Assembly (NCBI GenBank): GCA_016783545.1
Contig: JADHWJ010000002.1
Coordinates: 1,617-65,616, forward strand
Direction: 5' to 3'
From: Candidatus Aenigmatarchaeota archaeon
GTDB taxonomy: Archaea > Aenigmatarchaeota > Aenigmatarchaeia > QMZP01
Length of the DNA: 64,000 nucleotides
Shown here one piece after another: positions 294 to 39,517 of this stretch. Each line of letters starts with the position of its first letter. Positions within the stretch are counted from its first letter, which is position 1. The notes beneath the pieces are model-generated. The model did not search any database and was not told where the DNA came from. It worked only from the letters and a program-made list of their open reading frames with translations. The position numbers and the translations under genes were made by a program.

Positions 294-622
294 ATATATT
301 TAAAGATTGGAAGATAATAACATAATAGAGATCTTTGGTCTCTGTTCATATTCACACGATTATTACGTTTGCTTTTACAAACACCAGAGAAGATTTTTTT
401 CTTAGTATTATCTACCCACTTGCTACCTTAGAACGTGTCTCAGGACAGTCTTAGATAGAAAGGGGGTGATCATATCATGGCGCCCACAGACTATGCCTAC
501 AAGCGACGATGTCTGACTGGGCACTTCATTTCTTCTGTTGGAGAATAAAATTGTTCTGGTGGAATCAGACTGGTTGTCCACCATAAGGTGCAGAGTCCAT
601 ACCTAATTGAAGGAATGGGCAA

Positions 623-1084: not shown

Positions 1085-1162
1085 GGAAGATGATCCTCTT
1101 TTGGGTATGGTCATGGTAAGAACTACCCCCCTCGGTCAGGACAGCTTCTGGCCGGGGGTAGT

Positions 1163-1211
1163 GGGGATAGGTGATGTTGACCTTGTGGTTCAAATCCACA
1201 TATCCCCTCCA
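1163..1211 (+). ncRNA. tRNA-like mini-structure (acceptor stem + T-arm + CCA, no D-arm)
   Basis: GGGGATA/TATCCCC 7-bp stem; TGTGG-TTCAAAT-CCACA T-arm; ends T-CCA. Confidence 0.5.
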
Positions 1212-1299
1212 ATTCGCCTCCGCCTCCCGGACAGGCGCAGCCCCAGATCAAGCGACACCCCAATATTCATGATGAGGTGGTGCTCGCTTGGTCTTTATA

Positions 1300-2163: not shown

Positions 2164-4859
2164 AAGTGCTATCAGGTTCCCAGGCAGTTGCAGAGGCAGT
2201 AAAACTTTGTAAACCAGAGGTTGTTCCAGTTTATCCTATCACTCCAGCCACACCAATGGCAGAATACCTCTCACAGATGGTTGCTGATGGTGATTTGAAT
2301 GCTGAATTCATAACAGTGGAATCAGAACATTCTGCAATGTCAGCATGCATAGGCGCATCCTCAACAGGTGTAAGAACATTTACAGCAACAGCTTCACAAG
2401 GTCTTTGTGTAACACCGGATACTGATATAATCATGGAAAATCCAGGAATAAAAAACATAAAAGACTTTGTGGATAAAAATCTTGAGAAGTATAAAATAAA
2501 CCAAGGAAAATGGGAAATTGGAACTGGAACTGGCAAAATTTTGACATGGAATGGTCAGGAATTTGAATATGATAAAATAACCCATGTTCAGAGAATAAAA
2601 CCTCCAAAAAAGTTAATTAAAATTATAACGAGATCTGGTTCTGAAGTTACAGTTACACCAGATCATAAAATATTAATAGATAATGTAAATAAACCAGAAT
2701 GGATTGAAGCAAAAATGTTAAATGGCAATGAATATCTATATGCGCCAAGAAAAATAAAATTAAAAAATATAAAAAGACCAAAAATAATAGAATTTCTACC
2801 AGAAAATATGACTGTTATACTTGATTCCGAAATAAAAACAAGATTAGTTAGAAAAATAAAAAATATTTATGGGAGTTTAAATAAAGGTTCTAAAAAACTT
2901 GAAATACCAAAACATCATATTCTTTCTAACTATTCTATCTCTTTGGAAACAATAAAAAAATTATGTGATTCTGATATTATCAAGTGGAAAGAAATATATG
3001 AAAAAACAAATATATTCTCTCTTCACGGAGGGACAATTAAAACAAATTTTAAGGAACTAAATAAAGATTTCATGTACTTATTAGGTCTGATGTTTTCTGA
3101 TGGATGTTTCAAAGGAGATATTAAAAGTAAAAATAGGTTTGTATTCACTAATAAAAATAAAAAGTTATTGAAAATATTCTCAAATGGTTATAAAAAGTTA
3201 TTTCCGAACAAACCTGTTGGAAAGGTTTTACTTAAAAGAGGTGTAACACAGTTAATGGGTTCAAATTTTATATTTTCAATACTTGGCAAGAAAATAACTT
3301 TAAAGAAAATTTTCAGTTACGATGAAGAGCTAATAAAATCATTTCTGAAAGGTTATTTTGATGGTGATGGGAGTTGCAGAATTCAGAGCAAAAAAAGAAT
3401 AACAATATTCTTACATTGTAAAGATGATAGCAAAGTATCAGATCTGAAAAAGTTATTGTTAAGACTTGGTATTCTTAGTCATGTATATAAAAGAGATAAT
3501 ATTATTAGAGGTCTGTATATTTGTGGTTTGGGTGATACAATAAAATTTATAAGCACCATAGGAAGTAATCATCCTCAGAAACGAGAAAGATTCGTTATAG
3601 CTAAAAAATTCTTATTAAAATCTAAGCCAAGACCGCAATGGTCAGGTAAAACAGCTTTAATATGCAGAGATTTATTGATTGCTACAATAAAGAAAAGCTC
3701 ATATTCAATGAATGAAATTGATCCTGAGAATTATATTAATAAAACAAAATTTAGAAATACTCGAATAGGAAAGGAAAAATTAAGGGAAATTTTGAAAAGA
3801 ATGGAAGAAAGAAATTTTGAAAAAGATGAAACTTTCAGCTTACTGAAAAAGATGTCCTCAGATTCATTCTTTCTGGATCCCATAAAAAAAATAAAAAAAA
3901 TAAAGAGCCCACATAAATATGTTTACGATTTAACTGTTGAGAAGAATAGATCATTTGTTCCAAATGCTGCTTTTGTTGTTAGCAATTGCTTAATGCATGA
4001 AATGCTTTTTGTTGCATCAGGAACAAGATTGCCTATTGTTATGGCAATTGCAAACAGGGCACTGTCTGCTCCTTTGAATATTTGGAACGATCAGCAGGAT
4101 AGTTTTGCTCAAAGGGATTCTGGTTGGATACAGCTCTATGTTGAGAATGCACAAGAAGCTTTTGATACAATTATAATGGCATATAGGATAGCAGAGGAGA
4201 TGAAAACACCTGCAATGGTCTGCATGGATGGTTATGTTATCTCTCATACATATGAGAATGTTGAACTTCTTAGCCAGTCTGATGTTGATAGATTCCTTCC
4301 CAAATTCAAGCCAGAGATATTCCTTAACCCAAGAAAACCAATGACAATTGGCCCGGTAGGAACCCCTGAATATTATATGGAATTTAAAAAGCAGCAGCAG
4401 GATGCTCTGAAACAATCACTTGAGACAATTAAAAGAGTCAGCAATGAGTTTGCTTCAATGGTAAAAAGAAAGTATGGCAACGGCCTGATTGAAAAGATTG
4501 GTATGGAAGGAAAGAAGCATGCATTGATAACAATAGGTTCTCTGACAGGCACAGCAAGAGCTTTACAAGAGCAAGATGATTTTGGTATAATAAGAATTAA
4601 GGCATTGAGGCCTTTCCCTCTAAAACAGATAATAGAGGCCTGCAAAGACCTTGAGTCAGTGGGTGTTGTAGAAAAAGATATTTCTTTGGGGGCAAACGGT
4701 GTCCTATATGATGAAATACGTTCTGCTTTATATGGAAAATCCAAAGCAAAAGTCTCTGGTTATATAGCGGGATTGGGCGGAAAGGATATCACTCTCAGTG
4801 ATCTGAAAGGCATTTTGAAGAGTGTTAGGGCTGGAAAAGATAGTGTGGAGTGGATTTAA
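2160..4859 (+). CDS. porA: Pyruvate/2-oxoacid:ferredoxin oxidoreductase alpha subunit, intein-interrupted
   Basis: VYPITP, VESEHSAMSA, TATASQGL|intein|CLMHE, ANRALSAPLNIWNDQ. Confidence 0.93.
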   Translation: MKVLSGSQAVAEAVKLCKPEVVPVYPITPATPMAEYLSQMVADGDLNAEFITVESEHSAMSACIGASSTGVRTFTATASQGLCVTPDTDIIMENPGIKNIKDFVDKNLEKYKINQGKWEIGTGTGKILTWNGQEFEYDKITHVQRIKPPKKLIKIITRSGSEVTVTPDHKILIDNVNKPEWIEAKMLNGNEYLYAPRKIKLKNIKRPKIIEFLPENMTVILDSEIKTRLVRKIKNIYGSLNKGSKKLEIPKHHILSNYSISLETIKKLCDSDIIKWKEIYEKTNIFSLHGGTIKTNFKELNKDFMYLLGLMFSDGCFKGDIKSKNRFVFTNKNKKLLKIFSNGYKKLFPNKPVGKVLLKRGVTQLMGSNFIFSILGKKITLKKIFSYDEELIKSFLKGYFDGDGSCRIQSKKRITIFLHCKDDSKVSDLKKLLLRLGILSHVYKRDNIIRGLYICGLGDTIKFISTIGSNHPQKRERFVIAKKFLLKSKPRPQWSGKTALICRDLLIATIKKSSYSMNEIDPENYINKTKFRNTRIGKEKLREILKRMEERNFEKDETFSLLKKMSSDSFFLDPIKKIKKIKSPHKYVYDLTVEKNRSFVPNAAFVVSNCLMHEMLFVASGTRLPIVMAIANRALSAPLNIWNDQQDSFAQRDSGWIQLYVENAQEAFDTIIMAYRIAEEMKTPAMVCMDGYVISHTYENVELLSQSDVDRFLPKFKPEIFLNPRKPMTIGPVGTPEYYMEFKKQQQDALKQSLETIKRVSNEFASMVKRKYGNGLIEKIGMEGKKHALITIGSLTGTARALQEQDDFGIIRIKALRPFPLKQIIEACKDLESVGVVEKDISLGANGVLYDEIRSALYGKSKAKVSGYIAGLGGKDITLSDLKGILKSVRAGKDSVEWI
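2406..3986 (+). mobile_element. Intein with LAGLIDADG homing endonuclease (527 aa) in PorA
   Basis: Starts CVTPDT; block B VTVTPDHKIL; endonuclease motifs YLLGLMFSDG and FLKGYFDGDG; ends VYDLTV..FVVSN with +1 Cys. Confidence 0.93.
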
Positions 4860-4979
4860 CCCTTAAATTATTTTCTTCTAAGAAATATCCATGATTGACT
4901 TTGCTAAACTTCTTTCAAAAAGAAGTTCAATCAAGAAGGAGCTACCTTCATAAATTCAGGTAGCTTCCAAGGAGACTTC

Positions 4980-6113
4980 ATGATTGACTTTGCATTCAAG
5001 AATATCACAAGACAGAGAACAAGAACCATTCTCACCACTTTAGGAATTATAATAGGCATAGCTGCTATAGTTGCTTTAGGTTCTATTTCTGAAGGAATAA
5101 ATCAATACATAACTGCTAGCCTAGAACTTTCAGCAGGAAAGATAATAATTCAGCAAAGAGGTTCTGGTGGTTTTCAGGGAGGATTTGCTGGTTCTGATAT
5201 AACAGATGATGATCTAGAAGAGCTTGGGAGTATTGATGGAGTAAAAGAGATTGTTCCAATGAATCTATACTTTTCAATGGGTCGTGGAATGAGCTTTGGT
5301 CCTGGTATGGTTATAGCTGGAATAGATCCTGAAAGATCAGAATTTCTTGTTGGTGAGAACATAGAGATGCATGAAGGTAGGGAAATGGAAGGAGGCGAGA
5401 CTGGTGTAATGATGCTAGGATTTGTTTTTGCAGAACAAAGAGATCTGGGAGTTGGTGATTATTTTGAGTTGAAGGATATGGAGTTTGAGATAATAGGTAT
5501 ATTGGAAAAGATAGAAAATCCAAATGTTGATGATAGTGCAAGTGTAAATATAGTGGACATTCAGGAATTAATGGGTGTTGATACCTATCAGATGGCTTAT
5601 GTGGTCCCCTTTGATATAAGGGATGCTGAAGCAATTGCAGAAGAGATAGAGAATTCTTATGAAAAACTTTCAGCAACAACACCAGTAGAGCTCGCAAGAC
5701 AGGTTGGGGAGATAATAACTCAGATAAGATTATTCACTCTTGGTATTGGTGGCATAGCTGCTGTTGTTGGTGGTCTAGGTGTTCTTAATACAATGATAAT
5801 GGCTGTTCTTGAAAGAAGAAGGGAGATTGGTGTAATGAAGGCAATTGGTGCAACCAAGAGAAGAATATTAATGCAGATACTCACAGAGTCTGCAATGATA
5901 AGCCTTATTGGCGGTGCACTAGGTCTTGCAATAGGCGCTCTTGTTGTCTTTGGTATTGTTTTGGCTAGTGGTGGACAGTTGCCTGCTCAGGTAACACCAG
6001 GTCTTGCTGCTGGTAGTATGATATTTGCTCTGATGCTTGGAATAGTTGGTGGTGTTTACCCATCAATAAAAGCAGCGAATCTAGATCCAGTGGAGGCATT
6101 GAGATATGAGTGA
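4980..6113 (+). CDS. ABC transporter permease, MacB/FtsX family
   Basis: RTILTTLGIIIGIAAIVAL, VLERRREIGVMKAIGA, AANLDPVEALRYE. Confidence 0.93.
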   Translation: MIDFAFKNITRQRTRTILTTLGIIIGIAAIVALGSISEGINQYITASLELSAGKIIIQQRGSGGFQGGFAGSDITDDDLEELGSIDGVKEIVPMNLYFSMGRGMSFGPGMVIAGIDPERSEFLVGENIEMHEGREMEGGETGVMMLGFVFAEQRDLGVGDYFELKDMEFEIIGILEKIENPNVDDSASVNIVDIQELMGVDTYQMAYVVPFDIRDAEAIAEEIENSYEKLSATTPVELARQVGEIITQIRLFTLGIGGIAAVVGGLGVLNTMIMAVLERRREIGVMKAIGATKRRILMQILTESAMISLIGGALGLAIGALVVFGIVLASGGQLPAQVTPGLAAGSMIFALMLGIVGGVYPSIKAANLDPVEALRYE

Positions 6114-8514: not shown

Positions 8515-8549
8515 TTAATACTTGGAATATGAGTATATAAAGTTTTTTC

Positions 8550-8566
8550 TCCCGTTAAGATGACAA
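8550..8566 (-). repeat. Conserved site copy TTGTCATCTTAACGGGA
   Basis: Preceded on the minus strand by a 9-bp hairpin (8570-8604) and followed by GAAAAAACTTTATA. Confidence 0.9.
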
Positions 8567-8614
8567 AATAACAGGACAGAAAGGGTCTCCCCAATTGTCC
8601 TGTTCAATCTTACC

Positions 8615-9034
8615 TTACCGCCGACAGACACCGCACACGGTTCTCCGCCCACAACGGCAAGACGATTGCCGGACCGTGCTGAGAATCTCAGCACGTAGTT
8701 TGTTCAGCTCAGCCTTGAGTTGGTCTCTGCAGACCAGCCTTTGCACGCAGGCCTTGATCTCCTCGATCTGGCACCTCATTTCCCTGAGACCAACATTGGA
8801 GCAGCCATGTGAGCATTGCCGCCTCGAACTCGGTGTGTTCACATAGTCGCTGAGAACAACCAGCGACCGTTCGACCCTGTTGAGGCGATCCAGAACCGAG
8901 CGGAGATCTGTCCTTTTGCATGATTCCTTGGGGCGGATCTTTATGACGATCTCCTCACCACCCCTTTCACAGATGTACCGCTCAGATCCGAACACTGACG
9001 AAACAGCGACCAAAAAAATCACCAAGCACTTCAT
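8615..9034 (-). CDS. Orphan secreted coiled-coil, Cys-rich protein (139 aa)
   Basis: AAAGGAGG RBS before MKCLVIFLVAVSSVFG signal peptide; C-terminal CRCGRRTVCGVCRR. Confidence 0.75.
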   Translation of the reverse strand: MKCLVIFLVAVSSVFGSERYICERGGEEIVIKIRPKESCKRTDLRSVLDRLNRVERSLVVLSDYVNTPSSRRQCSHGCSNVGLREMRCQIEEIKACVQRLVCRDQLKAELNKLRAEILSTVRQSSCRCGRRTVCGVCRR

Positions 9035-9279
9035 CGTCTTCCTCCTTTCCAAAGACTTCCCAAAGACTAAGAAACAGAAACCTTCCACATTCCTTCGATT
9101 AAGAAAAACAAATTCGCTTTGTAACTGATGTTTTGTGAGAGCTGTATAGCGTTTTACTGCAAATACGGCTAAGAATAATATTAAATGAAGAAATGATTTA
9201 TAAATGTTCTTGTGTTTGCAATATGCCGTAAAGGCTTTTTCGTGAACGTTTTTGAATAAATATAGCCCAATAAAAAGGT

Positions 9280-13186: not shown

Positions 13187-13597
13187 TCATTCTCTAAGAC
13201 TTAATCCATATCTACCAAGAATTTCTTTTACAGCTCTAAGTGATGTGGGACCAAAATGTTCATAATATAACAAATCCTTTTCAGATCTTGTTAAAAGTTG
13301 AGTGATAAGCCGAATTCCTTTAGCTTCAAAAACATTTTGACACCTTGCAGGAAACGGTAGTTCATCTACATTGCGATATGTAATATCTGTACCTGGTTCA
13401 GGGGTTTCTTTTCCCATATCATCCAGGGTAGTACATAGTTCATCTGTTACCCTATCAATCTCTTTTAGATAATTTTTTAAAAATTCGCTGTTCTCTGGAT
13501 CCTCATATTGATCCATTAAGTCCCTGGCAAATGTAGAATATCTTTTGGCTGTTGCCTTAAGGTATTCATGTCTTGCTGTCCGAATTTCCTGTTTCAT
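13187..13597 (-). CDS. Protein with C-terminal bacterial RNA polymerase alpha-CTD-like domain
   Basis: VDELPFPARCQNVFEAKGIRLITQLLTRSEKDLLYYEHFGPTSLRAVKEILGRYGLSL follows the RNA_pol_A_CTD pattern. Confidence 0.8.
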   Translation of the reverse strand: MKQEIRTARHEYLKATAKRYSTFARDLMDQYEDPENSEFLKNYLKEIDRVTDELCTTLDDMGKETPEPGTDITYRNVDELPFPARCQNVFEAKGIRLITQLLTRSEKDLLYYEHFGPTSLRAVKEILGRYGLSLRE

Positions 13598-13632: not shown

Positions 13633-13649
13633 TCCCTTTAAAATGACAA
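13633..13649 (-). repeat. Conserved site copy TTGTCATTTTAAAGGGA
   Basis: Preceded by hairpin 13656-13688 and CTTTATA; followed by a TATA box. Confidence 0.9.
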
Positions 13650-13996: not shown

Positions 13997-14185
13997 CGGT
14001 TTCTCCTTGAAAGACTCTTTCCAGACAACTGATTCCAGTTTCTGTTCAGAGCAAGACCTAAGAAAAACAGTTCTCTCAGTACGTGTGTTGGAAAAAAACA
14101 AAACAACATTTTACAGCCTGTTTTGCTAAAACAATATTACTATTCGTAATGTTATTTATAAGTGTTTTTTTAACAAGAAATTGAG

Positions 14186-14566: not shown

Positions 14567-14583
14567 TCCCTTTTAATTGACAC
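14567..14583 (-). repeat. Conserved site copy GTGTCAATTAAAAGGGA
   Basis: Preceded by hairpin 14594-14615 and CTTTATA; followed by TATTTATAAG. Confidence 0.8.
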
Positions 14584-14589
14584 TATAAA

Positions 14590-15740
14590 GGCAAGGTGGT
14601 CGGCGTAGGCCACCTATGGTCTGGAAATAGGATACTCTCCAAGGATCTCCGGTTCGAAGAGCCAGTTTCAGCCCCGGTACAATGAAGAGGACCGTTTGAG
14701 CGGGATCCTGATCCCAAAATACCGTCATCATTGTGTCGGGGGTTCCAGTGTCCCGTTTCGGCGCGCTCCAATAAAACATAGAGGAGCGATTGGCCGAGGA
14801 CTGTGCCGGGAGGACCCCCTGTGTTGGTGCTTACCTACCGGACCACCATTGCCCACCGAGAGCCTGTAGCCTTATCAGGGCTCGACTCCCGATAATTCCT
14901 ATTATTGGAGGCTTTTGGATTGTCTGTTTTGGGGCTACCTGAGACCACCTCATGTGGGTGGAAAGGTCTCGCCCCGTTTATGGTTCCCTCCCATTAGAAG
15001 GAGACCCTGAAGGATCTCCTGGGAGTCAAGTGCCTCCCCTTCGGTACAACTAACGCTCAGTGGGATAACTCCCCCCACCGTTCGTTACGAATCACATGAG
15101 GTGCGACCCAAGTCAGCCGAATCCGAACCTCATTTGCGTACTCCCCCTTTCGGGTAAGGTGCCCACCATGTTCTGGACGGGTTGGGTGGACACAGGTTGT
15201 CGGTTTCCGGTGCAACCGCCTTGCTAGGACTCCAGTAATCCCAGCTTTCGTGGCAGTTGGTAAGTGGTTGCCTCCGCGAGAGAGCAACCAACAATGCCTA
15301 GTGACTGGCCGAATTGGTGTTTGGCTTTATCTTTCAGTCTTCGCATAACACCCTTCTGCCACCTCGGACGCGAGGTTCAAAGTTGGATGTTAAAGCTAGG
15401 ACTTAGTCCTTGCCCTCGCAATTTGTTCTCCTTCCTTGCGTTGGCTAGTTTTGGCTCCCTTTAGAGCTCATCAGGAAAGCCAGCTTGGCCGAAGGAGATA
15501 TGCCAGTCTTTCAAGGTACGTCCTGATTTATAGAGATACGGTTTCTTGGCCAATAGCTACATAGGGTACTTCAAACGACAAAGCATGATGCAAATCATGC
15601 GTTTGACCTCCTTTCTAGCGGGGAGTAGGGCCATGAAAAAAATTTGGAGGGAGGGAGGCCGCCCGTGTGGGTCAGGCACGGACGACCTCCTGGGAGGGAG
15701 TTGGGTACGTAACCTAAGACAGAGAAAGATGTTAGTTTTC
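14590..15740 (-). ncRNA. Candidate large (~1.15 kb) structured non-coding RNA (island 4)
   Basis: GC-rich, no credible long ORF, dense hairpins; 14-bp helix 15654-15690 and helix 14999-15020 have G-U pairs only on the minus strand; CCC-GAAA-GGG and C-UUCG-G loops on minus. Confidence 0.65.
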
Positions 15741-15820
15741 TAGAAGTAGTACTAAAGAAAAAAATCATCTTCTCTGGGAGTTTGCAAAGCAAACCTTGTG
15801 AACTAATGAATATGAAATGA
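15740..15820 (-). promoter_or_regulatory. Conserved 5' leader shared with island 1, downstream of TATA box TTTAAATA (15851-15858)
   Basis: TTCATATTCA..GTTTGCTTTGCAAACTCCCAGAGAAGATGATTTTTTTCTTTAGTA versus 345-414. Confidence 0.7.
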
Positions 15821-15968
15821 TTAATGATACTTGACAATTCGCTCTTAATATTTAAATACTTATCCCATAAAAGTGGGAATTTCGTAAAGCCTCTTAAGGT
15901 TTCTTTTCCCAAGGGTTTTCTTGGGAGCAATATAAACAAAGAAGGTGGAAGCCTCTAAGAAAAGCCTT

Positions 15969-21722: not shown

Positions 21723-22111
21723 TGAGTATTCTTAAACAATAATTTTTCTTTTTAAGTAACCAATACCAATTCAAGAGATATCAAAGCTCTTTTTGGCGTA
21801 AAACCCATTGAGCTTGTCCAACACATTTCACCAACTCATCAAGAGCTGGTTTAGAGAAGCTGTTTTCTTTCTTAGTTATCAGACTATCCTCTGTAAAGGA
21901 ACAATAGTCTTTTCTAGGTCTTCGGGAGCACTGTGTCCATTGGACTATGGCGGTAGAACATGGTAATGCCAATACGCAACCGTCCCATTGCAGCCATGCG
22001 CATAATTGGGAAATCGGTGGTGGCGGATTCTCTTTTCGCACCTCCCTTCTTGATGAAACCACTGACGCTTCGAGCAGTGCTATCCGAACTTTTTTTAGAA
22101 AGAGTTGGGTC

Positions 22112-22324
22112 ATGAATTACGTTGAGTGGAAGGTCAGAAACGCCCCAAAGAGGGAGAAGTGGTGGCAGAAGCTGCTTGCTATCATTATTCTTTGCTTGGG
22201 AGTAGCTCTCCTGGGCTGGCTTTTTGTTGATGCCTGGGAGAAGGAAGAGAGGTTCAGGGACGCCAGGCTGAAAGCGTTCCAAATAGAAAATGGAGTTGAC
22301 ATCAACGAAGTCAGCTCCAGATAG
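22112..22324 (+). CDS. Orphan single-pass membrane protein (70 aa)
   Basis: KWWQKLLAIIILCLGVALLGWLF TM segment; upstream start at 21947 also possible. Confidence 0.65.
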   Translation: MNYVEWKVRNAPKREKWWQKLLAIIILCLGVALLGWLFVDAWEKEERFRDARLKAFQIENGVDINEVSSR

Positions 22325-22408
22325 TATTGACACGACCCTCCCAACATAGAGAACAGTGTCAGTGCCAGAGATATGGGTTTGCCACAAGCTTACTCATACT
22401 CTGTTATA

Positions 22409-22425
22409 TTGTCATCTTAAAGGGA
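22409..22425 (+). repeat. Conserved site copy TTGTCATCTTAAAGGGA
   Basis: Directly upstream of GAAAAGGCTTATAAA promoter and ACTATAG-AACA-CTATAGT operator-like palindrome. Confidence 0.9.
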
Positions 22426-22462
22426 GAAAAGGCTTATAAACTATAGAACACTATAGTATACT

Positions 22463-22687
22463 ATGGAAACAACAACAATACAAATAACTGAGAATTTGCA
22501 AAATGAACTCAAATCCAGAAAAATATCAGAAAATGAAAGCTATGAAGAGGTTATATGGGATATGATAGAGGATACTATGGAACTTTCTGAACAAACCAAA
22601 AAAGATATAAGGGAAGCTGAAGAGGATATCAAAGCCGGTAGAGTTCATACACTTGAAGAGATTGAAAAGAGAATCAAAGATGATTGA
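22463..22687 (+). CDS. Antitoxin (DUF7557/VapB3-like), partner of RelE
   Basis: TTIQIT..ESYEEVIWDM..EEDIKAGRVHTLEEI; overlaps the toxin gene. Confidence 0.8.
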   Translation: METTTIQITENLQNELKSRKISENESYEEVIWDMIEDTMELSEQTKKDIREAEEDIKAGRVHTLEEIEKRIKDD

Positions 22688-22943
22688 AATGTATAATGTT
22701 ATTTTCTCTAAAAAAGCAGGAAAAGAGTTTGATAAATTGGAAAAAATAATTCAGAAAAGATTAGTTTCTGTAATCAAGAGGATAAGGATAAGACCTGAGG
22801 CTTTTGTTAGAAAGCTTGTCGGAGGACCTTATTATAGACTGAGAGTTGGTGAATACAGAGTAATTTTGGATATCAGAAAAGGAGAATTGATTATTCTGGT
22901 TATTTCTATTGGTCATAGAAGAAACATCTATAAGAGCCTTTAA
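22680..22943 (+). CDS. RelE/ParE family toxin
   Basis: YNVIFSKKAGKEF..YRLRVGEYRVI..IGHRRNIY. Confidence 0.92.
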   Translation: MIEMYNVIFSKKAGKEFDKLEKIIQKRLVSVIKRIRIRPEAFVRKLVGGPYYRLRVGEYRVILDIRKGELIILVISIGHRRNIYKSL

Positions 22944-22954
22944 TTTACTTAAAT

Positions 22955-22971
22955 TTGTCATTTTAGAGGGA
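22955..22971 (+). repeat. Conserved site copy TTGTCATTTTAGAGGGA
   Basis: 11 bp after the relE stop; followed by GAAAAAGCTTTATAAA and GTAAACA-AATA-TGTTTAC palindrome. Confidence 0.9.
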
Positions 22972-23017
22972 GAAAAAGCTTTATAAATATGTAAACAAAT
23001 ATGTTTACAGTGATTAT

Positions 23018-23254
23018 ATGGTTCAAGTTCAATTAAGAGTGCCAGATAATATGGTTAAGGATATTGATGGATGGGTAGAAGAAGGAAGATTCAAAAACAG
23101 AAGCGATGCTGTTAAAACAATTATATCTCTATATGAGGATAAGATGAAAACAATGGAATTCCTAAAAATGCTTGTAAATAGGAGCAAAGAAGCTGAAAAT
23201 AACCCTGAAAAATTGATACCCCTGGATGATCTGGATGTTAAAAGTTCTAATTAA
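23018..23254 (+). CDS. Ribbon-helix-helix (CopG/Arc/MetJ) antitoxin
   Basis: VQVQLRVP..IDGWVEEGRFKNRSDAVK. Confidence 0.88.
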   Translation: MVQVQLRVPDNMVKDIDGWVEEGRFKNRSDAVKTIISLYEDKMKTMEFLKMLVNRSKEAENNPEKLIPLDDLDVKSSN

Positions 23255-23308
23255 TAATAAAGCGAATTTTTACAGATATGCCTTGATCGGCATTATAGGA
23301 GGCATTGG

Positions 23309-23569
23309 ATGTTTAAGATACTTCTACACACTCTAAGTTTAAAATCTCTTGAAAAGCTGGATAAAGAAGTTCAGTTTCAAATAAGGAAGAAATTAAGAGA
23401 ACTTGAGGAATTTCCTGAACAAAGAGGTAAGCATTTAAGATATACACAATTCTGGAGTCTGAGAATAGGTGATTATAGAGCTATATATGAAATTAAAAAT
23501 AAAGAAGTTATTGTTCTTTTCATAGGTCATAGAGATAGAGTATATGATGATTTCTCAAAGATATTTTAG
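23309..23569 (+). CDS. RelE/ParE family toxin
   Basis: WSLRIGDYRAIY..FIGHRDRVY. Confidence 0.92.
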   Translation: MFKILLHTLSLKSLEKLDKEVQFQIRKKLRELEEFPEQRGKHLRYTQFWSLRIGDYRAIYEIKNKEVIVLFIGHRDRVYDDFSKIF

Positions 23570-23714
23570 ACAGACGATTTACTTAAATTTGTTTAAGCCT
23601 TTTAGAGGCAAATGAAACCTCCATTTAAACCAATAAGATCAAATGGAGAACCTACTGCCTTCTTTGGTTAAATCTTTTCGCAAAAGCCTTAAGTTCACCC
23701 AAAAACCCTTAAAA

Positions 23715-23731
23715 TTGTAATCTTAACGGGA
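23715..23731 (+). repeat. Conserved site copy TTGTAATCTTAACGGGA
   Basis: Followed by GAAAAAGCTTTATATA; same sequence at 52002. Confidence 0.9.
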
Positions 23732-24160
23732 GAAAAAGCTTTATATACCACTAATACAATTAATCTTATCTGTCACTATGTAATAGTGATAATTAAAGGG
23801 AGAACATGGGAGTAACTCATGTTCTATGAAACTTAAATAGAGTTGCAATGCAACCGAAAGTTTCATAAATAGTAATTACAAATAAAAGAGATCAGGTGTC
23901 AAATTTGTCCCGCAAGGGTGAATTTGGCAAACTCTCCCATCTTGGAACTGCCAGTTGGCAGTTCCTCTTGGACCATTGGTTGTAAAAGATCAATGGTTTT
24001 ATCCTTACAAACACAATTGAACTGGCTTACTATCTTCGGATATACCAGTTCAAACCGAGTGAATACACGGATTAAAGGGCCAAATTTTTCTAGTTCTGAG
24101 AATCTTCAATGATTTTCTTCAAGGTCTTTTGTCTGTCTACTCGGTAATTACATAATTGTT

Positions 24161-24500
24161 AGGGACAGGAAGCGGGGTCGGTAAAACCATCCCCGATTAC
24201 TATACATCGCAACGGTAGGAGTCGCGAGTCCGCCCGCAGTACCACGCCTAATGGCTGGTAATGGCCGGCATAATTCCTACCCGGGGTCGGAACCACCCCG
24301 CTTCCTCCCTTCGGCTTCTAAGGTATACAGCCCCCTTTAGAAGAATACACCGAAGGATTCAAACGGTTCAGGGGCAATGTGGTGCACCATAATATTACAT
24401 AGGAGTATATAGGTGCACAAGGACGCCGAAGGGAGTCCCGAAAATTTGTCGTACCTCACTATGACATATGGTGAGGCACTCGCGTCCTCTAAGAGGACAC
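24161..24500 (+). ncRNA. Candidate structured RNA / long leader
   Basis: AGGAAGCGGGGT pairs with ACCCCGCTTCCT and encloses GGTAGGA/TCCTACC; four more hairpins follow. Confidence 0.55.
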
Positions 24501-24546
24501 TGATGTTTCGCTGATGGAGTCTTTTTCACTGAAAGGAGTGAAAGAG

Positions 24547-25086
24547 ATGGAAGAAGAAAGACGGTCAGAAGAAAGAGCAGACGCATACGAAGAGTTGGGT
24601 GAGGTTGCTGTGCCCACACCCGAGACCGCGCCGGAACCCACGGGTGGGATCACGATCAGGTTCACTCGCGGGAACGTAGTTTCCGCATTGATCGGAGCCC
24701 TGATTTGTTTCGGGGTGATGTACCTGATCTCCGAGGGAAACGACCGGCGACAGGTCGACGAGATCACCGAGCTGCGCGAGGTCGGCCTGAAGCTGCACAC
24801 CCTGGCCCAGAAGGCGTTCGACAAGTGCCGGGATATCGAGGGCTACGAGCGGGCCACGTTGAAGGTCCCGGCGATTTTGGCAAAGGGGCAGAAGGTCGAG
24901 ACCGCACCGAAACCGAAGCCCCGACAGGTCGAGCCGGAGCCGCAGCCTGAACCGGTCTACGACGACCCGGAGCCCGAGGTCGTGGAGCCTGAGCCGGTCA
25001 CGACCAACGACGACCCTCGGACCGAGGATCCCCCACCCATCGCGAACGATGAGTTTGAGGATGGGGGCGACGAAGGCGGCGAGTAG
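24547..25086 (+). CDS. Orphan membrane-anchored protein with Pro/Glu-rich acidic tail
   Basis: AAAGGAG RBS; TM VVSALIGALICFGVMYLI; ELREVGLK motif; ends DEGGE. Confidence 0.8.
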   Translation: MEEERRSEERADAYEELGEVAVPTPETAPEPTGGITIRFTRGNVVSALIGALICFGVMYLISEGNDRRQVDEITELREVGLKLHTLAQKAFDKCRDIEGYERATLKVPAILAKGQKVETAPKPKPRQVEPEPQPEPVYDDPEPEVVEPEPVTTNDDPRTEDPPPIANDEFEDGGDEGGE

Positions 25087-25096
25087 TTTTCGCTGC

Positions 25097-25151
25097 AACG
25101 GGAGTCCTATAGGCCTCGGGACTTCCTTAACAAAATAAAGGGAGGCCTACT
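25097..25151 (+). repeat. 55-bp intergenic direct repeat, copy 1
   Basis: AACGGGAGTCCTATAGGCCTCGGGACTTCCTTAACAAAATAAAGGGAGGCCTACT identical at 26162-26216. Confidence 0.95.
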
Positions 25152-25190
25152 GATGGATGTTGACGTTCGACGGTAAGAAAGGGACACAAC

Positions 25191-26153
25191 ATGAGGACGA
25201 GAGCCCTCACGGCCGCGCTCATTTTCACGGCCGCAACCATAGGACTCGCTGGGAGCGCCCGCGAGCATTACAAGGTCGGCGTCCGGCACATGATTCAGGG
25301 GTCTGATGCATATAACCCCCGTGCCGCGATGGAGGCCTTCAGCAAGGTATGTGAAGCCGATCCCACGTACGGGAACTCGATTGGCTTTGCGAAGCCTGTC
25401 AAGGAGCAGCTGTTCAACGCTGCTATGGCGTACTTCTCCGAAGTTACGGAGTCAGAGATGACTCTGGAGAAGAAGTTGGAAGAGCTGACTGCGATTAGGA
25501 TTGCATTGTTCATGTGTAAGTCAGATCGAGGTCAGTTCTCAGAAGTTGACCAAAGTGGTCTGAACGCGAAGATCATGGCGGTCAACGCGGTAGCCCAACG
25601 GGTGCAGGAGGTCATTAGGGCGCAATCCCGACAGGCCGAGCCGGAGAAGTTCGACGCAGCCGCGACGATGCAAGAGGTCGCGACACGTTACGATACGGCC
25701 AAGCGAGAGCTGGCCTTCGCGTCTCAGCTCGTGGGAGAGGTCCTTGAACAGGACCCGGACCATGAGGAAGCGAATCGGGCCAGGGAGCTCCTTGAGATTC
25801 GCCTCATACCAGTGGATGAGTTCAATGAGCTCAATGCGACCGTCTCGTTGCTGAAACAGACGGTTAACGAGGCCGCGGACAAGATTCGCGAGGCCCGGCA
25901 GGATCACGCGCGCCGGGTCCTTTACTCGCGCGAGCTGCGCGAGGTCGGGCTGAAGTTTCACGAGCTCGCCGAGATCAGTTACAACAAGTGGCTGAAGTTG
26001 GCCAAGCCCGGAAGCGAGGCTCGGACGCTGAAGCTTCCGGAGGTGCTGGAATACGAGCCGTTCATCTCGGAGCAGGTCCTTGATCTGGTTCACGACGATG
26101 AGCAGCACGAAGGCGACGAGCACGAAGCCGACGACGACGAAGGCGGTGAGTAA
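25191..26153 (+). CDS. Orphan secreted helical (TPR-like) protein, paralog of 24547-25086
   Basis: Signal peptide MRTRALTAALIFTAA; ELREVGLKFHELA; ends DEGGE. Confidence 0.8.
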   Translation: MRTRALTAALIFTAATIGLAGSAREHYKVGVRHMIQGSDAYNPRAAMEAFSKVCEADPTYGNSIGFAKPVKEQLFNAAMAYFSEVTESEMTLEKKLEELTAIRIALFMCKSDRGQFSEVDQSGLNAKIMAVNAVAQRVQEVIRAQSRQAEPEKFDAAATMQEVATRYDTAKRELAFASQLVGEVLEQDPDHEEANRARELLEIRLIPVDEFNELNATVSLLKQTVNEAADKIREARQDHARRVLYSRELREVGLKFHELAEISYNKWLKLAKPGSEARTLKLPEVLEYEPFISEQVLDLVHDDEQHEGDEHEADDDEGGE

Positions 26154-26161
26154 CTAGCCGT

Positions 26162-26216
26162 AACGGGAGTCCTATAGGCCTCGGGACTTCCTTAACAAAA
26201 TAAAGGGAGGCCTACT
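26162..26216 (+). repeat. 55-bp intergenic direct repeat, copy 2
   Basis: Identical to 25097-25151. Confidence 0.95.
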
Positions 26217-26259
26217 TTGGACGTGAAGTTGGGACGTTTTCAGAAGAAGGAGTAGTACC

Positions 26260-26754
26260 ATGAGAGCGATCACGATCGCCCTTATCACCGTTGCCGGACT
26301 GTCGTTCATCGGGTCGGTCGAGGCAGCGGAGATCGATTTGGACGCCGCATTGGCGGAAGTGACGGCCGCGCCGGATACGACGGCCGCGCCGGTTCGGAGA
26401 AGTACCAGTGCCCAGAGGCCGGTGGTTCGGAGAAGCGCCACCAGGGTCGCATACCCGGCCGCTCAGGCGCATGCTGATGCCGCAGTCACGGACATTGAGT
26501 CCAGTATCACTGAGGCCGAGGCACACGGGCGTGTTCGCCGCGCCCAGGCTGATAGGGTAGTTTCCGCAGCAGAAGAGGCCGAGGCCATGGCAGATGCGGC
26601 GGCGGCTCGGGCCCGTAGGGCGCAGGCCGAGGCACGCTTCGAGGGTGCCCGGAGCGAATTCCATAGTGGTTGCAGCGATGCGGCTGCCACACAGTATCGG
26701 ACACATCTCCGGCGCGTGACCCGTGCCAGCGGAGGTCGGGTGCCTGTTCGGTAA
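26260..26754 (+). CDS. Orphan secreted Ala/Arg-rich coiled-coil protein
   Basis: GAAGGAG RBS; signal peptide MRAITIALITVAGLSFIGSVEA; internal 27-30 nt duplication (TTAAPVRRST/AQRPVVRRSA). Confidence 0.75.
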   Translation: MRAITIALITVAGLSFIGSVEAAEIDLDAALAEVTAAPDTTAAPVRRSTSAQRPVVRRSATRVAYPAAQAHADAAVTDIESSITEAEAHGRVRRAQADRVVSAAEEAEAMADAAAARARRAQAEARFEGARSEFHSGCSDAAATQYRTHLRRVTRASGGRVPVR

Positions 26755-26765
26755 TACCCGATCTC

Positions 26766-26809
26766 AACCTCCCCCTGGTGGCATACAACCAGCTTGCCAG
26801 GGGGAGGTT
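26766..26809 (+). terminator. 13-bp perfect hairpin (terminator or processing site)
   Basis: AACCTCCCCCTGG..CCAGGGGGAGGTT. Confidence 0.55.
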
Positions 26810-26879
26810 AGCGTCCTTAAAAAGCTGGTTTTTCACCAGACCAGTCAAAACAACGAGACCTTCTTGAAAGGAGGTTGTC

Positions 26880-27239
26880 ATGTGGAGAATAAGTACAGGC
26901 GAGCTGGCACTTTTGATCATCGGCAGCTTTGTTGCCGGTGCAGTTGTTGCCGGCTTTCTTAGTCGGTTGGTGCGGGGTCGAGGCAAGCCGTCTCCGGCAG
27001 CTCAGCCAGTGCCAGTGCCGAGCGAGTCGGAAGTCGTTCTGACGAAAAGGGAGCTGACGGCTCTGGTGAAGAGCCAGGTTGTTAGTGCTCTCAAGGAGAA
27101 GGAGCTGGGAGCACAGCCCGAGCCGATAGAGCCGCCGGAGTTGACCAAACTGTCGGTAGAAGAAGTGGTTGATGCAATACCCGAATCAATCACCGCCGAG
27201 AAGGAGGAGGAAGTACCCGAGAAAGGAGAAGACTCATGA
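26880..27239 (+). CDS. Orphan single-pass membrane protein
   Basis: AAAGGAGG RBS; TM LALLIIGSFVAGAVVAGFL. Confidence 0.75.
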   Translation: MWRISTGELALLIIGSFVAGAVVAGFLSRLVRGRGKPSPAAQPVPVPSESEVVLTKRELTALVKSQVVSALKEKELGAQPEPIEPPELTKLSVEEVVDAIPESITAEKEEEVPEKGEDS

Positions 27240-27826
27240 GGAATCTGAGTTTCGCCGCCATCATAGCGGCTCTCCTTCTTGTAGGTTGTGAGAGGGAGAA
27301 GAGTTCCAGCAGCCGAGGGCGCACAACCAGGCGCGCCGCCGATGGGGAGAAGTTGACCCTTCGGGACCTGCAGGCGGATCCTAACGGGTTCGCTATCGTG
27401 GACCCAGACCGCCGGCGAATGAAGCTCCCCATGAGCTTCAGAATCGTCAGAGCCATGGACGGCGGGTCCGGTGAGGAAGTTATGCTGGTCGCTTATCTTG
27501 GGGGTGAGGAGAGCCCCAGCGATGAGCAGGACGGGGTTGAGGAAGATGTACCGCCGAACTATGTTCTCGTCCGGGTTCGGCGGGCGTGTGGTGTAGATCT
27601 CCTTGGCGGGGAGACGAACGCCAACTGCCGCCTCTTTGTGAAGAAGTTCGAGCGCAAAGGGACGGTGGAGATGGGCGATCACGGTGACGAATTGTATGTA
27701 ATCACGGTCGCTCGCGGGGACATCTACTACAACTACGACGTCATGTCCCTGAGCGGCGATAACATGACGGATACGGTTGAGCGAGACCGGCCGCCGGATC
27801 CGGTGCGGCACCACAGCTACCCGTAA
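27236..27826 (+). CDS. Orphan putative lipoprotein
   Basis: MRNLSFAAIIAALLLVG-C lipobox; ATGA overlap with the previous gene. Confidence 0.75.
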   Translation: MRNLSFAAIIAALLLVGCEREKSSSSRGRTTRRAADGEKLTLRDLQADPNGFAIVDPDRRRMKLPMSFRIVRAMDGGSGEEVMLVAYLGGEESPSDEQDGVEEDVPPNYVLVRVRRACGVDLLGGETNANCRLFVKKFERKGTVEMGDHGDELYVITVARGDIYYNYDVMSLSGDNMTDTVERDRPPDPVRHHSYP

Positions 27827-27989
27827 GGGAAATGAATACCAGGTCCCTCCCAAGGGGTGGAGGGGCCTGGTGGCCTCTTGAGAGAAAGGAGATGAAAATC
27901 ATGTTGTGACGCCTTTCACAAAAACAACACAATGTTGAGGGTACGGCAACAGTACCAGAAAGGGAGTGGCGCCCCACAGTTGCTTTATG

Positions 27990-28025
27990 ATGTCTTTTTA
28001 ACGGTATATACCATTAACTTGACTG
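27990..28025. repeat. Two degenerate conserved sites head-to-head (27990-28006 +, 28009-28025 -) around palindrome GGTATATACC
   Basis: ATGTCTTTTTAACGGTA and CAGTCAAGTTAATGGTA, each preceded by a hairpin. Confidence 0.7.
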
Positions 28026-28060
28026 AGTAAAGGGGAAGTTGTTCCCCTTGTAATTACTCC

Positions 28061-28993
28061 TTATTTGATTTGATTCAGCTCTTCGTGAAAGCTTCTCCCA
28101 GCAGGGACCATGTCGTCTGTAACCCTGGGGTACTTCTCCCTTTTCTGTAGCAGACGGTTGGTGGCCTCTTCGAGTCGGTGTTTGAGCCCTTGCATGGGCT
28201 CATAAGAGGGCCTGGGCCAGATCAGGATACCACCATCCTTGAGAGAGTATGTGAGTCCGAAGGGCTCAAGGAGTATGGTTAGTATGGCACCAACAGACCC
28301 TTCGAGGCATTCCACCTGCTCGATCTTGATATGGTCCTCCCTATTGACCATCAGGTCGAAGGTCACCTTAAACCCCCCAATATCAGCTAGACCACTCACC
28401 AACTCTTCGAGTGTGATTGAAAGAGGGCTGGGCTGGAAGGTTATTTCCTTATCGAGCTTCTTCAAGAGATCGATCTTCCAACGCTGCTCTGAACCAAACT
28501 CTTTTTCCAGGTCCTCGTCCACCTTCATCTGGTAGAGTTTGTTGCAGATCTTAGTCCTCTCTTCAGCTGCTCGGAGTTGGGTAAAGAGCCGTGCCTCTCT
28601 CTTATTACGGGGCTCTTCCACAGCACTCTTCAGACTAGCTTTGGCTGTTTTGAGCTGTTCCTTAAGGCTCGCTTCAGTTGTCTGATACCCTTCGACCCTT
28701 TTGCGGAGATCCTCGAGCTCCTTTTGGGCTTGGTCCCTTTCCCCCTCTGCGATTCGGAGCATCTTGATGAAAGGGCCGTTGTGCTTGGCCTTTTCGAGTT
28801 TCTGGTTCTCTGCTGAGAGTCTCTTTACCTCGGTTCGAAGCTCAGCGAGCTCAGGTTCGTACTTGGCTTTCAGCTCTTCTCGAACCCGGTTTTCACCTTC
28901 CTTTACGAGCCGACTGACCTCCTCTTGGAGACCTAGATCACCCGCAAAGGCCAGTGCTGTGAAGCATAGTGATACAGCGATTCTTCTGTACAT
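28061..28993 (-). CDS. Secreted coiled-coil protein with STN/secretin-N-like domain
   Basis: Signal peptide MYRRIAVSLCFTALAFAG; TLEELV..ILTILLEPFGLTYSLKDGGILI. Confidence 0.75.
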   Translation of the reverse strand: MYRRIAVSLCFTALAFAGDLGLQEEVSRLVKEGENRVREELKAKYEPELAELRTEVKRLSAENQKLEKAKHNGPFIKMLRIAEGERDQAQKELEDLRKRVEGYQTTEASLKEQLKTAKASLKSAVEEPRNKREARLFTQLRAAEERTKICNKLYQMKVDEDLEKEFGSEQRWKIDLLKKLDKEITFQPSPLSITLEELVSGLADIGGFKVTFDLMVNREDHIKIEQVECLEGSVGAILTILLEPFGLTYSLKDGGILIWPRPSYEPMQGLKHRLEEATNRLLQKREKYPRVTDDMVPAGRSFHEELNQIK

Positions 28994-29005
28994 ATTAATC
29001 CTCCC

Positions 29006-29542
29006 TCAGAACACGATGAAATTGAATGCTCCTGTATAAGCAAATAGACTTGCTATTAGAAGCACCAATATCATCACCAGAATCCAGGCCATCTTACTTT
29101 TCGACATGGTCAGAGTAAACGACCGCCACCAGGTCCTCCTTATACCTGGTTCATCGACCCTCCTATTCACCATCAGCACACGTACTATGTATAGAAGACC
29201 ACCCACTATGGTTGCAATAATGCTCCAAAAGAGCACACCCATCTTCACTAGTGTGGATGGTTGTTGCTTCTTCAGATCATTGAGACTTAGAAGCCTTTCT
29301 TTTTCCTTGAGATGATTCTGAAGATCAGCTATCTTCTTGGCCTTTTCCTCGAGTCTGGCCAGACTTTCTGCTCCCTTCTGGTTAGCCTGCTCAAGCTGGG
29401 CAGAGAGTTTGGTGTTCTCTGCCCGGAGATGCTTGACCTCATTTTGGAGCTTCTCGTACTCTTTCTCGAATTCAGCTATCCGAGAGAGGTCGGGGTCTGC
29501 TGTTACTAGAAACTGTACGAGTAGAAACATTACGCTTTTCAT
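29006..29542 (-). CDS. Orphan coiled-coil protein with two C-terminal TM segments
   Basis: Short hydrophobic N-terminus, heptads, two hydrophobic segments. Confidence 0.75.
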   Translation of the reverse strand: MKSVMFLLVQFLVTADPDLSRIAEFEKEYEKLQNEVKHLRAENTKLSAQLEQANQKGAESLARLEEKAKKIADLQNHLKEKERLLSLNDLKKQQPSTLVKMGVLFWSIIATIVGGLLYIVRVLMVNRRVDEPGIRRTWWRSFTLTMSKSKMAWILVMILVLLIASLFAYTGAFNFIVF

Positions 29543-30096: not shown

Positions 30097-30369
30097 CTGA
30101 TTTCCCCTTAAGACGAACAAAGGACTAAAGAAAGTCCCTGAGAAATGGAAATCTGGCTAAAAAAGTGAATTATGAGACAATTCTCTCTCTTATCTAACCA
30201 GATAGACATATACGAATAATCCAATAGGTTTTTACACTCTATTGGGCAATATGTGTGTTATGTGTAAGGGTATTTGGCACAAAACCGCTTAAAAGCGGTA
30301 TTTAGTGACCATTGAATAGTAACATTAGAAATAGTTATTTAAATACATTATTGTGTGAAAAAATCGTGT

Positions 30370-37935: not shown

Positions 37936-38156
37936 AATGTATTTTTAAATCAAAAAATAATGATAATATATCTGCCTCCTGAATTTTCAAAGATCCAATG
38001 GTTTTCTATAATAGATTTGAAACGTTCAAAGAGATATGCAAATCTTTGTTTGCATGTACTTTGAAAAAAATTTCAAAGAGAATAAGATCGTTTCAGCTCT
38101 ATTTCTCTATTTTTCCTGGTTTCTGATGACTTTTCACTGTCTTTGGAGGAAGAGCT

Positions 38157-38306
38157 ATGGACTTGGAGTTCTGGTTTTTCGTTATTCTTGCTATGAGTCT
38201 TATCCTCAACATCGTTCTGATTATCGTGGCTCTTGGGCAAAGGACCAGGATCACGAATCTAGAAGATGACTTGGATATCTCAGAATCACACGCAGATGAG
38301 CGGTAG
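38157..38306 (+). CDS. 49-aa single-pass membrane protein (not in ORF track)
   Basis: GGAGGA RBS; MDLEFWFFVILAMSLILNIVLIIV. Confidence 0.7.
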   Translation: MDLEFWFFVILAMSLILNIVLIIVALGQRTRITNLEDDLDISESHADER

Positions 38307-38332
38307 ATTTCCGCTACATCAGGAGGAGAATT

Positions 38333-38488: not shown

Positions 38489-38491
38489 ATC

Positions 38492-38674: not shown

Positions 38675-38684
38675 GGAGACAAAT

Positions 38685-39008: not shown

Positions 39009-39016
39009 GAGAGAAC

Positions 39017-39475: not shown

Positions 39476-39517
39476 ACCATGGGGATATGTGTTGGATGAC
39501 ACTAATTCCCCATTACT

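Follow-up and report, generated by a model that had tools for sequence, protein, structure and literature searches.

The window analyzed here is a 64-kb stretch of DNA (C12:1617-65616) from an Aenigmatarchaeota metagenome-assembled genome (G000; 0.886 Mb in 18 contigs, 70% complete), which is small and AT rich, with a GC content of about 36%. The window is interrupted by blocks of more than 50% GC with sharp edges, located at 412-1337, 8548-9079, 14574-15765, 21901-22374, 24133-29532, 29688 to about 34000 (patchy) and 38287-41082, and as a whole it gave no Rfam match at the gathering score and no ARAGORN call. The first of its GC-rich islands lies between the genes nfo and porG on the forward strand; the fourth, on the reverse strand, lies downstream of a gene for a HerA-like ATPase. 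The features of these two islands are as follows.

Island 1
294-305, forward: TATA box ATATATTTAAAG, directly after the nfo stop codon (291-293) and 41-46 nt 5' of TTCATATTCAC
345-459, forward: leader (E 2.1e-8 with an HMM of 22 leaders; 2.3e-10 with R1, a sequence-only covariance model of 29 leaders)
345-355: leader block TTCATATTCAC
367-382: leader hairpin GTTTG/CAAAC
386-391: AGAGAA
402-405: TTAG
437-440: distal GTCT
448-452: proximal GTCTT
462-470: extended Shine-Dalgarno site GGGGGTGAT, followed by ATG at 476
476-1084, forward: GC-rich cargo with no Pfam family, comprising a 23-codon short ORF (476-547) and a signal-peptide ORF (623/628-1084)
1250-1320, forward: 3' end, with a stable hairpin, TTTATA, the box TTGTCATTTAAGCGGGA (1300-1316) and then a TATA sequence

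Island 4
15847-15860, reverse: TATA box AGTATTTAAATA, preceded by a degenerate box-like sequence (15861-15882)
15712-15820, reverse: leader (E 9.4e-6 with the HMM of 22 leaders; 1.5e-7 with R1)
15816-15806: leader block TTCATATTCAT, followed by a hairpin GTTTG/CAAAC
about 15778-15769: CCCAGAGAAG
about 15755-15751: TTTAG
15720-15716: GTCTT, with neither a second GTCTT nor a Shine-Dalgarno site in this leader
14584-15711, reverse: cargo of 1.1 kb, 52% GC, with no ORF longer than 76 amino acids
14567-14583, reverse: 3' box GTGTCAATTAAAAGGGA, preceded by a hairpin and TTTATA

The preliminary description of this DNA had paired the sequence at 345-414 (forward) with that at 15740-15820 (reverse), and we confirmed both the sequences and the coordinates of the pair. 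In a repeat search, the two copies appear as the inverted pair I2 (345-403 and 15758-15816, 59 nt, 71% ungapped), and a gapped local alignment extends over about 70 nt, from TTCATATTCA to TTAGTA(Y)TA, with a score of 52. Shuffled sequences scored 15.3±2.5, with a maximum of 31 in 2000 shuffles, which places the observed score about 14 SD above the control, and 52 was not attained by any of 5000 81-mers drawn at random from the genome; the similarity is therefore significant also against an AT-rich background, a point on which the first account had made its own reading depend. It had furthermore placed both copies downstream of a TTTAAA-type TATA box, and indeed they begin about 35-46 nt 3' of such a box (299-304 and 15856-15851, respectively). 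Simple word-based searches were of little use, as blastn-short with the two leaders was noisy and found seeds of 11-12 nt between copies and no third near-identical copy, and a word search for TTCTTAGGTCTT was nonspecific.

The leader family in the genome

About 30 GC-rich islands were located across the genome by means of their 3' motif, and their 5' edges were then read, all of them showing one order of blocks. The two focal copies turned out to be the most similar members of a family of leaders of 100-150 nt, 22 of which can be aligned with conserved blocks and fixed spacing. In the 5' half, the TATA box is followed by a CATATTCA/TTTCAC block, an optional hairpin, YAGAGAA and, 12-22 nt further on, TTAG; in the 3' half, TTAG is followed by about 30 nt without indels, GTCT, exactly 11 nt and GTCTT, after which coding cargo presents a purine-rich Shine-Dalgarno site and ATG. 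The hairpin occurs in about one-third of the copies (about 10 of 29), where it is stable, has 5-7 bp of variable sequence and ends 2-4 nt before YAGAGAA. The GTCTT motifs precede the first gene of an island only, internal genes being devoid of them. In the three-copy leader of the relative G004, the GTCT(T) spacings are 11 and 10 nt, close to the helical repeat of DNA.

With the HMM of 22 leaders, nhmmer found 32 matches in the genome at E < 0.02, all of them flanked by AT-rich sequence upstream (0.28-0.45 GC) and by GC-richer sequence downstream (0.40-0.56), and R1 found 34 at E <= 0.01, so that about 34 copies can be counted in the 0.89-Mb genome. An HMM built without the two focal copies recovered both of them (E 5e-4 and 0.026 in the window) and gave exactly nine matches in the window, one for each GC-rich island, and nothing else at E < 10. 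These matches are listed below together with the leaders and 3' boxes of the remaining islands.

Island 1: leave-two-out match 372-459, forward
Island 2: leader 9045-9122, reverse; leave-two-out match 9120-9045; box 8550-8566, reverse
Island 3: leader 14004-14081, reverse; leave-two-out match 14081-14004; box 13633-13649, reverse
Island 4: leave-two-out match 15793-15714, reverse
Island 5: leader 21852-21928, forward; leave-two-out match 21852-21928; box 22409-22425, forward
Island 6: weak leader 24081-24138, forward (E 0.8 with the HMM of 22 leaders, 0.035 with the leave-two-out HMM, 0.003 with R1); leave-two-out match 24081-24138; box 27990-28006, forward
Island 7: leader 30103-30191, reverse; leave-two-out match 30191-30103; box 28009-28025, reverse, tail to tail with the box of island 6
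Island 8: leader 38069-38150, forward; leave-two-out match 38070-38150; box 39518-39534, forward
Island 9: leader 41034-41123, reverse; leave-two-out match 41123-41034; box 39553-39569, reverse, tail to tail with the box of island 8

The shorter versions that had been noticed at 14058-14077 (reverse), 21853-21877 (forward) and about 9099-9120 (reverse) are thus genuine members of the family, being recovered by the leave-two-out HMM. The impression that only (A)GAGAA is left at islands 6 to 9 has to be corrected, since the whole order and spacing of the blocks is kept there (E 4e-8 to 0.035). The genome-wide profile searches also settled whether the motif is common upstream of core genes: it was not found upstream of the AT-rich ones.

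No conserved base pairs were returned by RNAalifold on 29 leaders, and a search of islands 1 and 4 against Rfam at E <= 1 gave a chance-level match to MicX (E 0.15) over island 1 and nothing else. A riboswitch, an attenuator or another known leader was therefore rejected, given the lack of a conserved structure and of a match to a curated family and the optional nature of the hairpin. Because the leader is made up of short linear motifs with constant spacing and lacks a conserved fold, a protein-binding function appears to be the most economical reading of its sequence.

The start context of the host genes differs in frequency terms from that of the islands, Shine-Dalgarno sites occurring in 12% of the long AT-rich host ORFs versus 47% of the GC-rich ORFs. 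In the AT-rich long ORFs, TATA sequences peak sharply between -30 and -26 relative to the ATG (19% versus a background of 3-5%), which, together with the low frequency of Shine-Dalgarno sites, fits host starts that are mostly leaderless or internal to operons.

Cargo and 3' ends of the units

The second conserved end of the units is formed by a hairpin and a box with the consensus TTGTCWTTTAAGAGGGATA. The box, TTGTCWTTTAAGAGGGA, occurs on the same strand 448-4187 nt downstream of 31 of the 35 leader matches, and the 31 complete units amount to 38.7 kb, or 4.4% of the assembly. The hairpins before the box are stable (mean z -2.8, with 20 of 28 below -2) and unrelated in sequence; in 18 of 28 cases, 3-6 nt separate the end of the stem from the box, and a TTTATA-like linker comes after the stem.

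Between these ends, the islands have nothing in common: all-against-all blastn returned only the box region, and blastp only the N terminus of prepilins. The cargo families recognized in Pfam include fucose isomerase, a xylose-isomerase-like TIM barrel, Gfo/Idh/MocA, PfkB, SDR, VIT-VWA, MFS, peptidase M54, Big_9/cadherin and bacterial-type N_methyl prepilins, and many cargo ORFs have no Pfam family; in particular, the 420-amino-acid protein of island 9 has no detectable homologue. The GC content at third codon positions is 0.64 in cargo ORFs versus a genome median of 0.29, and AT-rich cargo is found in two leader-bearing units. The best 80 genomic matches of the TIM-barrel protein are mostly from Planctomycetota, with up to 71% identity over the full length, and no record named as archaeal was seen among these 80. 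The possibility that the two-gene cargo is a conserved bacterial operon was rejected, a distant MocA homologue lying next door in 4 of 72 bacterial loci.

Two units carry cargo that is not protein coding in appearance. In the unit at C7:28884-30515 (forward), the cargo consists of four tRNA genes (Asn-GTT, Thr-GGT, Thr-CGT and Glu-CTC), which are four of the five tRNAs that ARAGORN calls in the whole assembly without the intron option, and the first of them starts 11 nt after the distal GTCT. The ORF-free cargo of island 4 folds more stably than expected, with an MFE z of -4.1 for the sense strand versus -2.6 for the antisense strand. It was not matched by any Rfam family, and comparison with the syntenic site of the relatives revealed no similarity with either blastn or tblastx. 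It is probably a structured noncoding RNA, to judge from its predicted folding, and may represent a new large RNA. Since the leader heads the tRNA unit and the ORF-free island 4 as well as coding cargo, its role is not purely translational. Many GNRA-like loops can be seen in the predicted fold of the island 4 cargo. In the 3' region of island 1, at 1150-1232 (forward), we noticed a tRNA-like minihelix (GGGGATA...TGTGGTTCAAATCCACATATCCCCTCCA), which was not called by ARAGORN or Rfam. Its acceptor stem has 7 bp, its T-arm is canonical and its CCA is encoded, and it has no D or anticodon arm.

The box also occurs apart from the leader. A leaderless array (22409-23762, forward) contains boxes at 22409, 22955 and 23715, each followed by the BRE/TATA-like promoter GAAAAAGCTTTATAA, in the manner of an integron-like mini-array; the first two boxes head leaderless AT-rich antitoxin/RelE-like gene pairs, as identified from their translations. 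The same module of box and promoter is found at 52002 (forward), 8550 (reverse), C4:18560/19135 and C13:19100/21850. Furthermore, the boxes of convergent islands stand tail to tail, 2-16 nt apart, at 27990-28025 and 39518-39569 in the window and at C13:9219-9259, and this arrangement suggests that insertions cluster at existing boxes.

Among the 31 genomes searched, the 24-nt box is present in 11, namely G000 and ten relatives, all of one family, and a reversed-pattern control was found in none; it occurs also in 64 metagenome contigs, many of them with the layout of hairpin and box, and in no viral contig of IMG/VR. Beyond G000, the leader model gave four matches in G004, weak ones elsewhere and a few in contigs. 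The same blocks could be read in G004 (L029 and L035), G010, G008 (L126 and L198) and the metagenome contig L137. The leader model transfers poorly to other genera, and the leader therefore evolves much faster than the 3' box, with the architecture being kept.

Gene order in relatives and the evidence on mobility

The gap between nfo and porG measures 1085 nt in G000, where it is filled by the promoter, leader, cargo, hairpin and box of island 1, versus 70-220 nt in G002, G007, G012, G006, G010 and G020, the last of which belongs to a different family from G000. In these six "empty" junctions, promoter, leader, cargo and box are absent together. Since nfo and porG are adjacent in the six relatives, the leader of island 1 belongs to the inserted segment, and the whole island, promoter and leader included, is on the evidence of gene order an insertion relative to them. 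An alignment against empty sites had been proposed as a way to see whether the leader travels with the cargo, and at island 1 it does. Contigs from an independent marine metagenome contain both junctions of the island.

At the site of island 4, the HerA-like gene is followed by a leader-like element also in G004 (R1 E 2e-7) and G010 (2e-4), and TTCATGCTCA and GTCTT blocks follow the same gene in G008, G007, G005 and G020, with a downstream sequence that differs in each relative examined. Leader-like sequences with different cargo in several genera indicate that the leader may persist as a platform while the cargo changes or that the HerA-like site may be a hot spot. It is possible to extend this to all the units and to suppose a resident platform, comparable to attI with Pc, in which promoter and leader are fixed and cargo, hairpin and box are swapped by site-specific recombination near GTCTT. 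Apart from the HerA-like site, such a scheme could draw on the box-like appearance of the proximal YTGTCTTTTGRAARGGA in some leaders, on the degenerate box that stands exactly at the AT-to-GC junction of one island and on the three tail-to-tail pairs, which suggest that boxes attract insertions. We nevertheless regard it as unlikely, because promoter and leader are missing along with the cargo at nfo-porG in the six relatives, no leader joined directly to a box, as an empty platform would be, occurs in G000, and no integrase lies beside any unit of the window. Moreover, the junction of leader and cargo is variable, with tRNA cargo following the distal GTCT and coding cargo starting 10-80 nt after the proximal one. 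Also, the leader motif and the box do not covary, since in G008 the leaders keep GTCTT and the boxes read GTCAA or GTCTA. We tried the idea that the proximal GTCTT YTGTCTTTTGRAARGGA is a 5' copy of the 3' box, forming an att-like direct repeat, and the enrichment was weak: 6 of 35 leaders score above the 95th percentile of controls at one aligned position, 3 of them above the 99th. It is kept as a minor possibility.

The claim in the preliminary description that the leader is a left end holds insofar as unrelated cargo is enclosed between the leader and the 3' site (31 of 35 leader matches) in islands that share only their ends; a left end in the sense of a recombination site is only a possibility, as no terminal repeats, target duplication or empty platform were found. 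In detail, the units have neither a terminal inverted or direct repeat nor a target duplication, there are no convincing flank duplications around those of G000, and neither a recombinase nor a circular junction was found for them. Two independent samples that contain the strain show the same arrangement, with no excision joints or strain polymorphism. Because no recombinase, empty platform, circular junction or polymorphism was found, mobility rests on the comparison between genera. Of the 31 genomes, 29 encode tyrosine recombinases; those of G000 show no linkage to the units.

These observations bear on a further alternative, according to which the leader is the shared operator or 5' untranslated region of an ordinary regulon of vertically inherited genes and mobility has been over-read. 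The sameness of the two samples agrees with it, as do the short, linear motifs at fixed spacing, typical of protein-binding sites, and the position 3' of the HerA-like gene, whose conservation in several genera fits the vertical inheritance of a resident promoter-leader. However, a regulon would not need a second conserved end with hairpin and box, the nfo-porG insertion argues against vertical inheritance, and 31 complete units making up 4.4% of the assembly are a high copy number. The cargoes, moreover, are unrelated to one another and mostly without known relatives, with third-position GC far above that of the genome (0.64 versus 0.29) and bacterial best homologues, and we thus consider this explanation quite improbable. 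Finally, although the leader is AT rich, contains a T-run and yields seeds of only 11-12 nt with blastn-short, a chance or low-complexity likeness in intergenic DNA or an assembly artifact has a negligible probability in view of an alignment score about 14 SD above shuffles, of profile matches confined to the 5' edges of the islands and of junctions reproduced in an independent assembly.

A particular arrangement was seen in G008, where a unit of leader, PepD-like cargo and box (L126, C24:43500-51500, at 2623-6075) is flanked on one side by an intact tyrosine recombinase gene and on the other by a duplicate of the 3' end of that gene, about 310 bp long and about 93% identical. A single crossover of a circle with homology to the flank would give this arrangement. 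Integrative elements that target tRNA genes or gene ends rebuild the 3' end of their target, and integrases of the SSV type are partitioned upon integration; the G008 unit, beside its duplicated recombinase 3' end, resembles these elements, whereas the units of G000 have neither a flank duplication nor an integrase of their own. Transposons and MITEs (DDE, IS200/IS605) were excluded, as the two ends do not form an inverted repeat, the hairpins have no common sequence and no duplication of the flanks was found. As regards a capture of genes by reverse transcription, two reverse transcriptase (RVT_1) genes, on C17 and C16, are unlinked to the units; one of them is accompanied by a 41-nt repeat like the VR/TR of diversity-generating retroelements (DGR) and is probably of the DGR type. 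Across the relatives, the presence of reverse transcriptase and the number of boxes are weakly correlated.

The leader as an end module of gene cassettes

DPANN archaea, with their tiny genomes, rely on other cells, and little is known about how they acquire and express foreign genes. We propose, with a probability of roughly 0.6, that the leader forms the 5' end module of cassettes, is transcribed and acts as a portable expression adaptor, with motifs that would be read by a sequence-specific protein. The layout of a cassette would be a TATA box, the leader, a Shine-Dalgarno site and ATG in the case of coding cargo, a GC-rich and often bacterial cargo, a hairpin, TTTATA and the box TTGTCWTTTAAGAGGGATA. 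In the transcript of a cassette, the leader would form the 5' untranslated region, and it would provide foreign genes with a host promoter context and, for coding cargo, with a start led by a Shine-Dalgarno site, and one protein could read the motifs, set at fixed and roughly helical spacing, on the DNA or on the nascent RNA of all cassettes. Judged on sequence, the leader and the conserved end box together look like the two ends of a kind of gene cassette that has not been described.

Canonical attC arrays occur in archaea, Aenigmatarchaeota included (Ghaly et al. 2022, PMC9668308). Full-text searches of the literature yielded this paper and, more broadly, studies of horizontal gene transfer among DPANN archaea, and no description of the leaders and boxes considered here. 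The units share with integrons and CALINs the combination of unrelated genes, often foreign or of unknown function, with a conserved element on the 3' side that resembles a recombination site and adjoins a stem-loop, the toxin-antitoxin-like units with their own promoters in the short array at 22409-23762, and a flow of genes across the domain boundary. Different from integrons, the 3' element consists of unrelated stems and a strongly conserved box of 17-24 nt, the units are dispersed singly and in both orientations between core genes, and every GC-rich unit has a TATA promoter of its own, together with a conserved leader of 100-150 nt. Integron cassettes are typically promoterless. The cargo is unrelated and largely foreign, as expected of integrons; the box TTGTCWTTTAAGAGGGATA lacks the GTTRRRY core of attC, and the stems are unrelated, as judged by inspection. 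PF00589 was found in G000 on contigs C11 and C7 only and not by the array or elsewhere on the contig of the window, the assembly being 70% complete. On these grounds (no GTTRRRY, no IntI on the contig, dispersion and own promoters), we rejected the identification of the units as integron cassettes and of the leader as attI or attC.

In class 1 integrons, the platform with attI, Pc and ORF-11 supplies a promoter and a translation start. The leader is similar in that a standard upstream segment equips any cargo with a promoter and with a ribosome-binding site or a short ORF, as in island 1, where a Shine-Dalgarno site and the 23-codon ORF precede the main gene. It differs in that each cargo, and not each array, has a copy, in that it is absent together with the cargo in relatives (island 1), and in that it has no adjacent integrase gene and no sequence similarity to that platform.

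Horizontally acquired operons are also preceded by the ops/JUMPStart leaders read by RfaH and by the leaders on which the NusG paralogues LoaP and UpxY act. The likeness is positional only and consists of a short conserved element in the long 5' leader of foreign operons; by analogy, our leader could work as a cotranscriptional license for foreign DNA. The differences are that several motifs are spread over about 100 nt, that no ops sequence is present and that the host is an archaeon. A single Spt5-NGN gene was found in G000 and in 25 of 30 relatives (two have none, and one has a second weak match), and since G000 has one Spt5 gene only, it has no RfaH-like paralogue. A leader of the ops/RfaH antitermination type was thus rejected for want of an ops sequence and of an Spt5/NusG paralogue.

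It is tempting, though rather doubtful, to go further and hypothesize that these Aenigmatarchaeota have a dedicated way of domesticating foreign genes, whereby bacterial genes would enter as pieces the size of a transcript, beginning at the Shine-Dalgarno site and ending with the intrinsic terminator hairpin, perhaps by way of RNA, and would be set between a promoter-leader and the 24-nt box. The leader would then be the handle for a cassette-specific protein licensing the transcription and translation of GC-rich foreign DNA in a cell whose mRNAs are otherwise leaderless, and the ends would permit insertion and exchange of cargo; if true, this would amount to a cross-domain gene-capture machine unrelated to integrons.

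Returning to the end module proposed above, discrete units whose 5' and 3' ends are stereotyped account for no less than 4.4% of the assembled genome; these units carry bacterial-type enzymes, pilins, lipoprotein-like proteins, tRNAs and an apparent large RNA. The shared leader provides a signature with which such imports may be searched for in other genomes and a route to the protein or proteins that recognize the units, as well as a handle on what makes a bacterial gene expressible in an archaeon, namely, a promoter, a leader and the use of Shine-Dalgarno sites in a mostly leaderless background. Should the units be mobile, a second cassette system, independent of integrons, would exist for the transfer of genes from one domain to another.

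Some minor features of the window may be added. Island 6 contains a 60-nt intergenic repeat, 97% identical between its copies at 25092-25151 and 26157-26216 (forward; GCYGYAACGGGAGTCCTATAGGCCTCGGGACTTCC...), which includes a hairpin. An AT-rich ORF of 136 amino acids (13187-13597, reverse), directly 3' of the island 3 box, matches PF03118 (E 6e-11), the C-terminal domain of the bacterial RNA polymerase alpha subunit, which is unusual in an archaeon. A 1381-amino-acid ORF of intermediate GC content (30370-34515, reverse) contains a long array of 12-nt tandem repeats, especially at 33191-33490.
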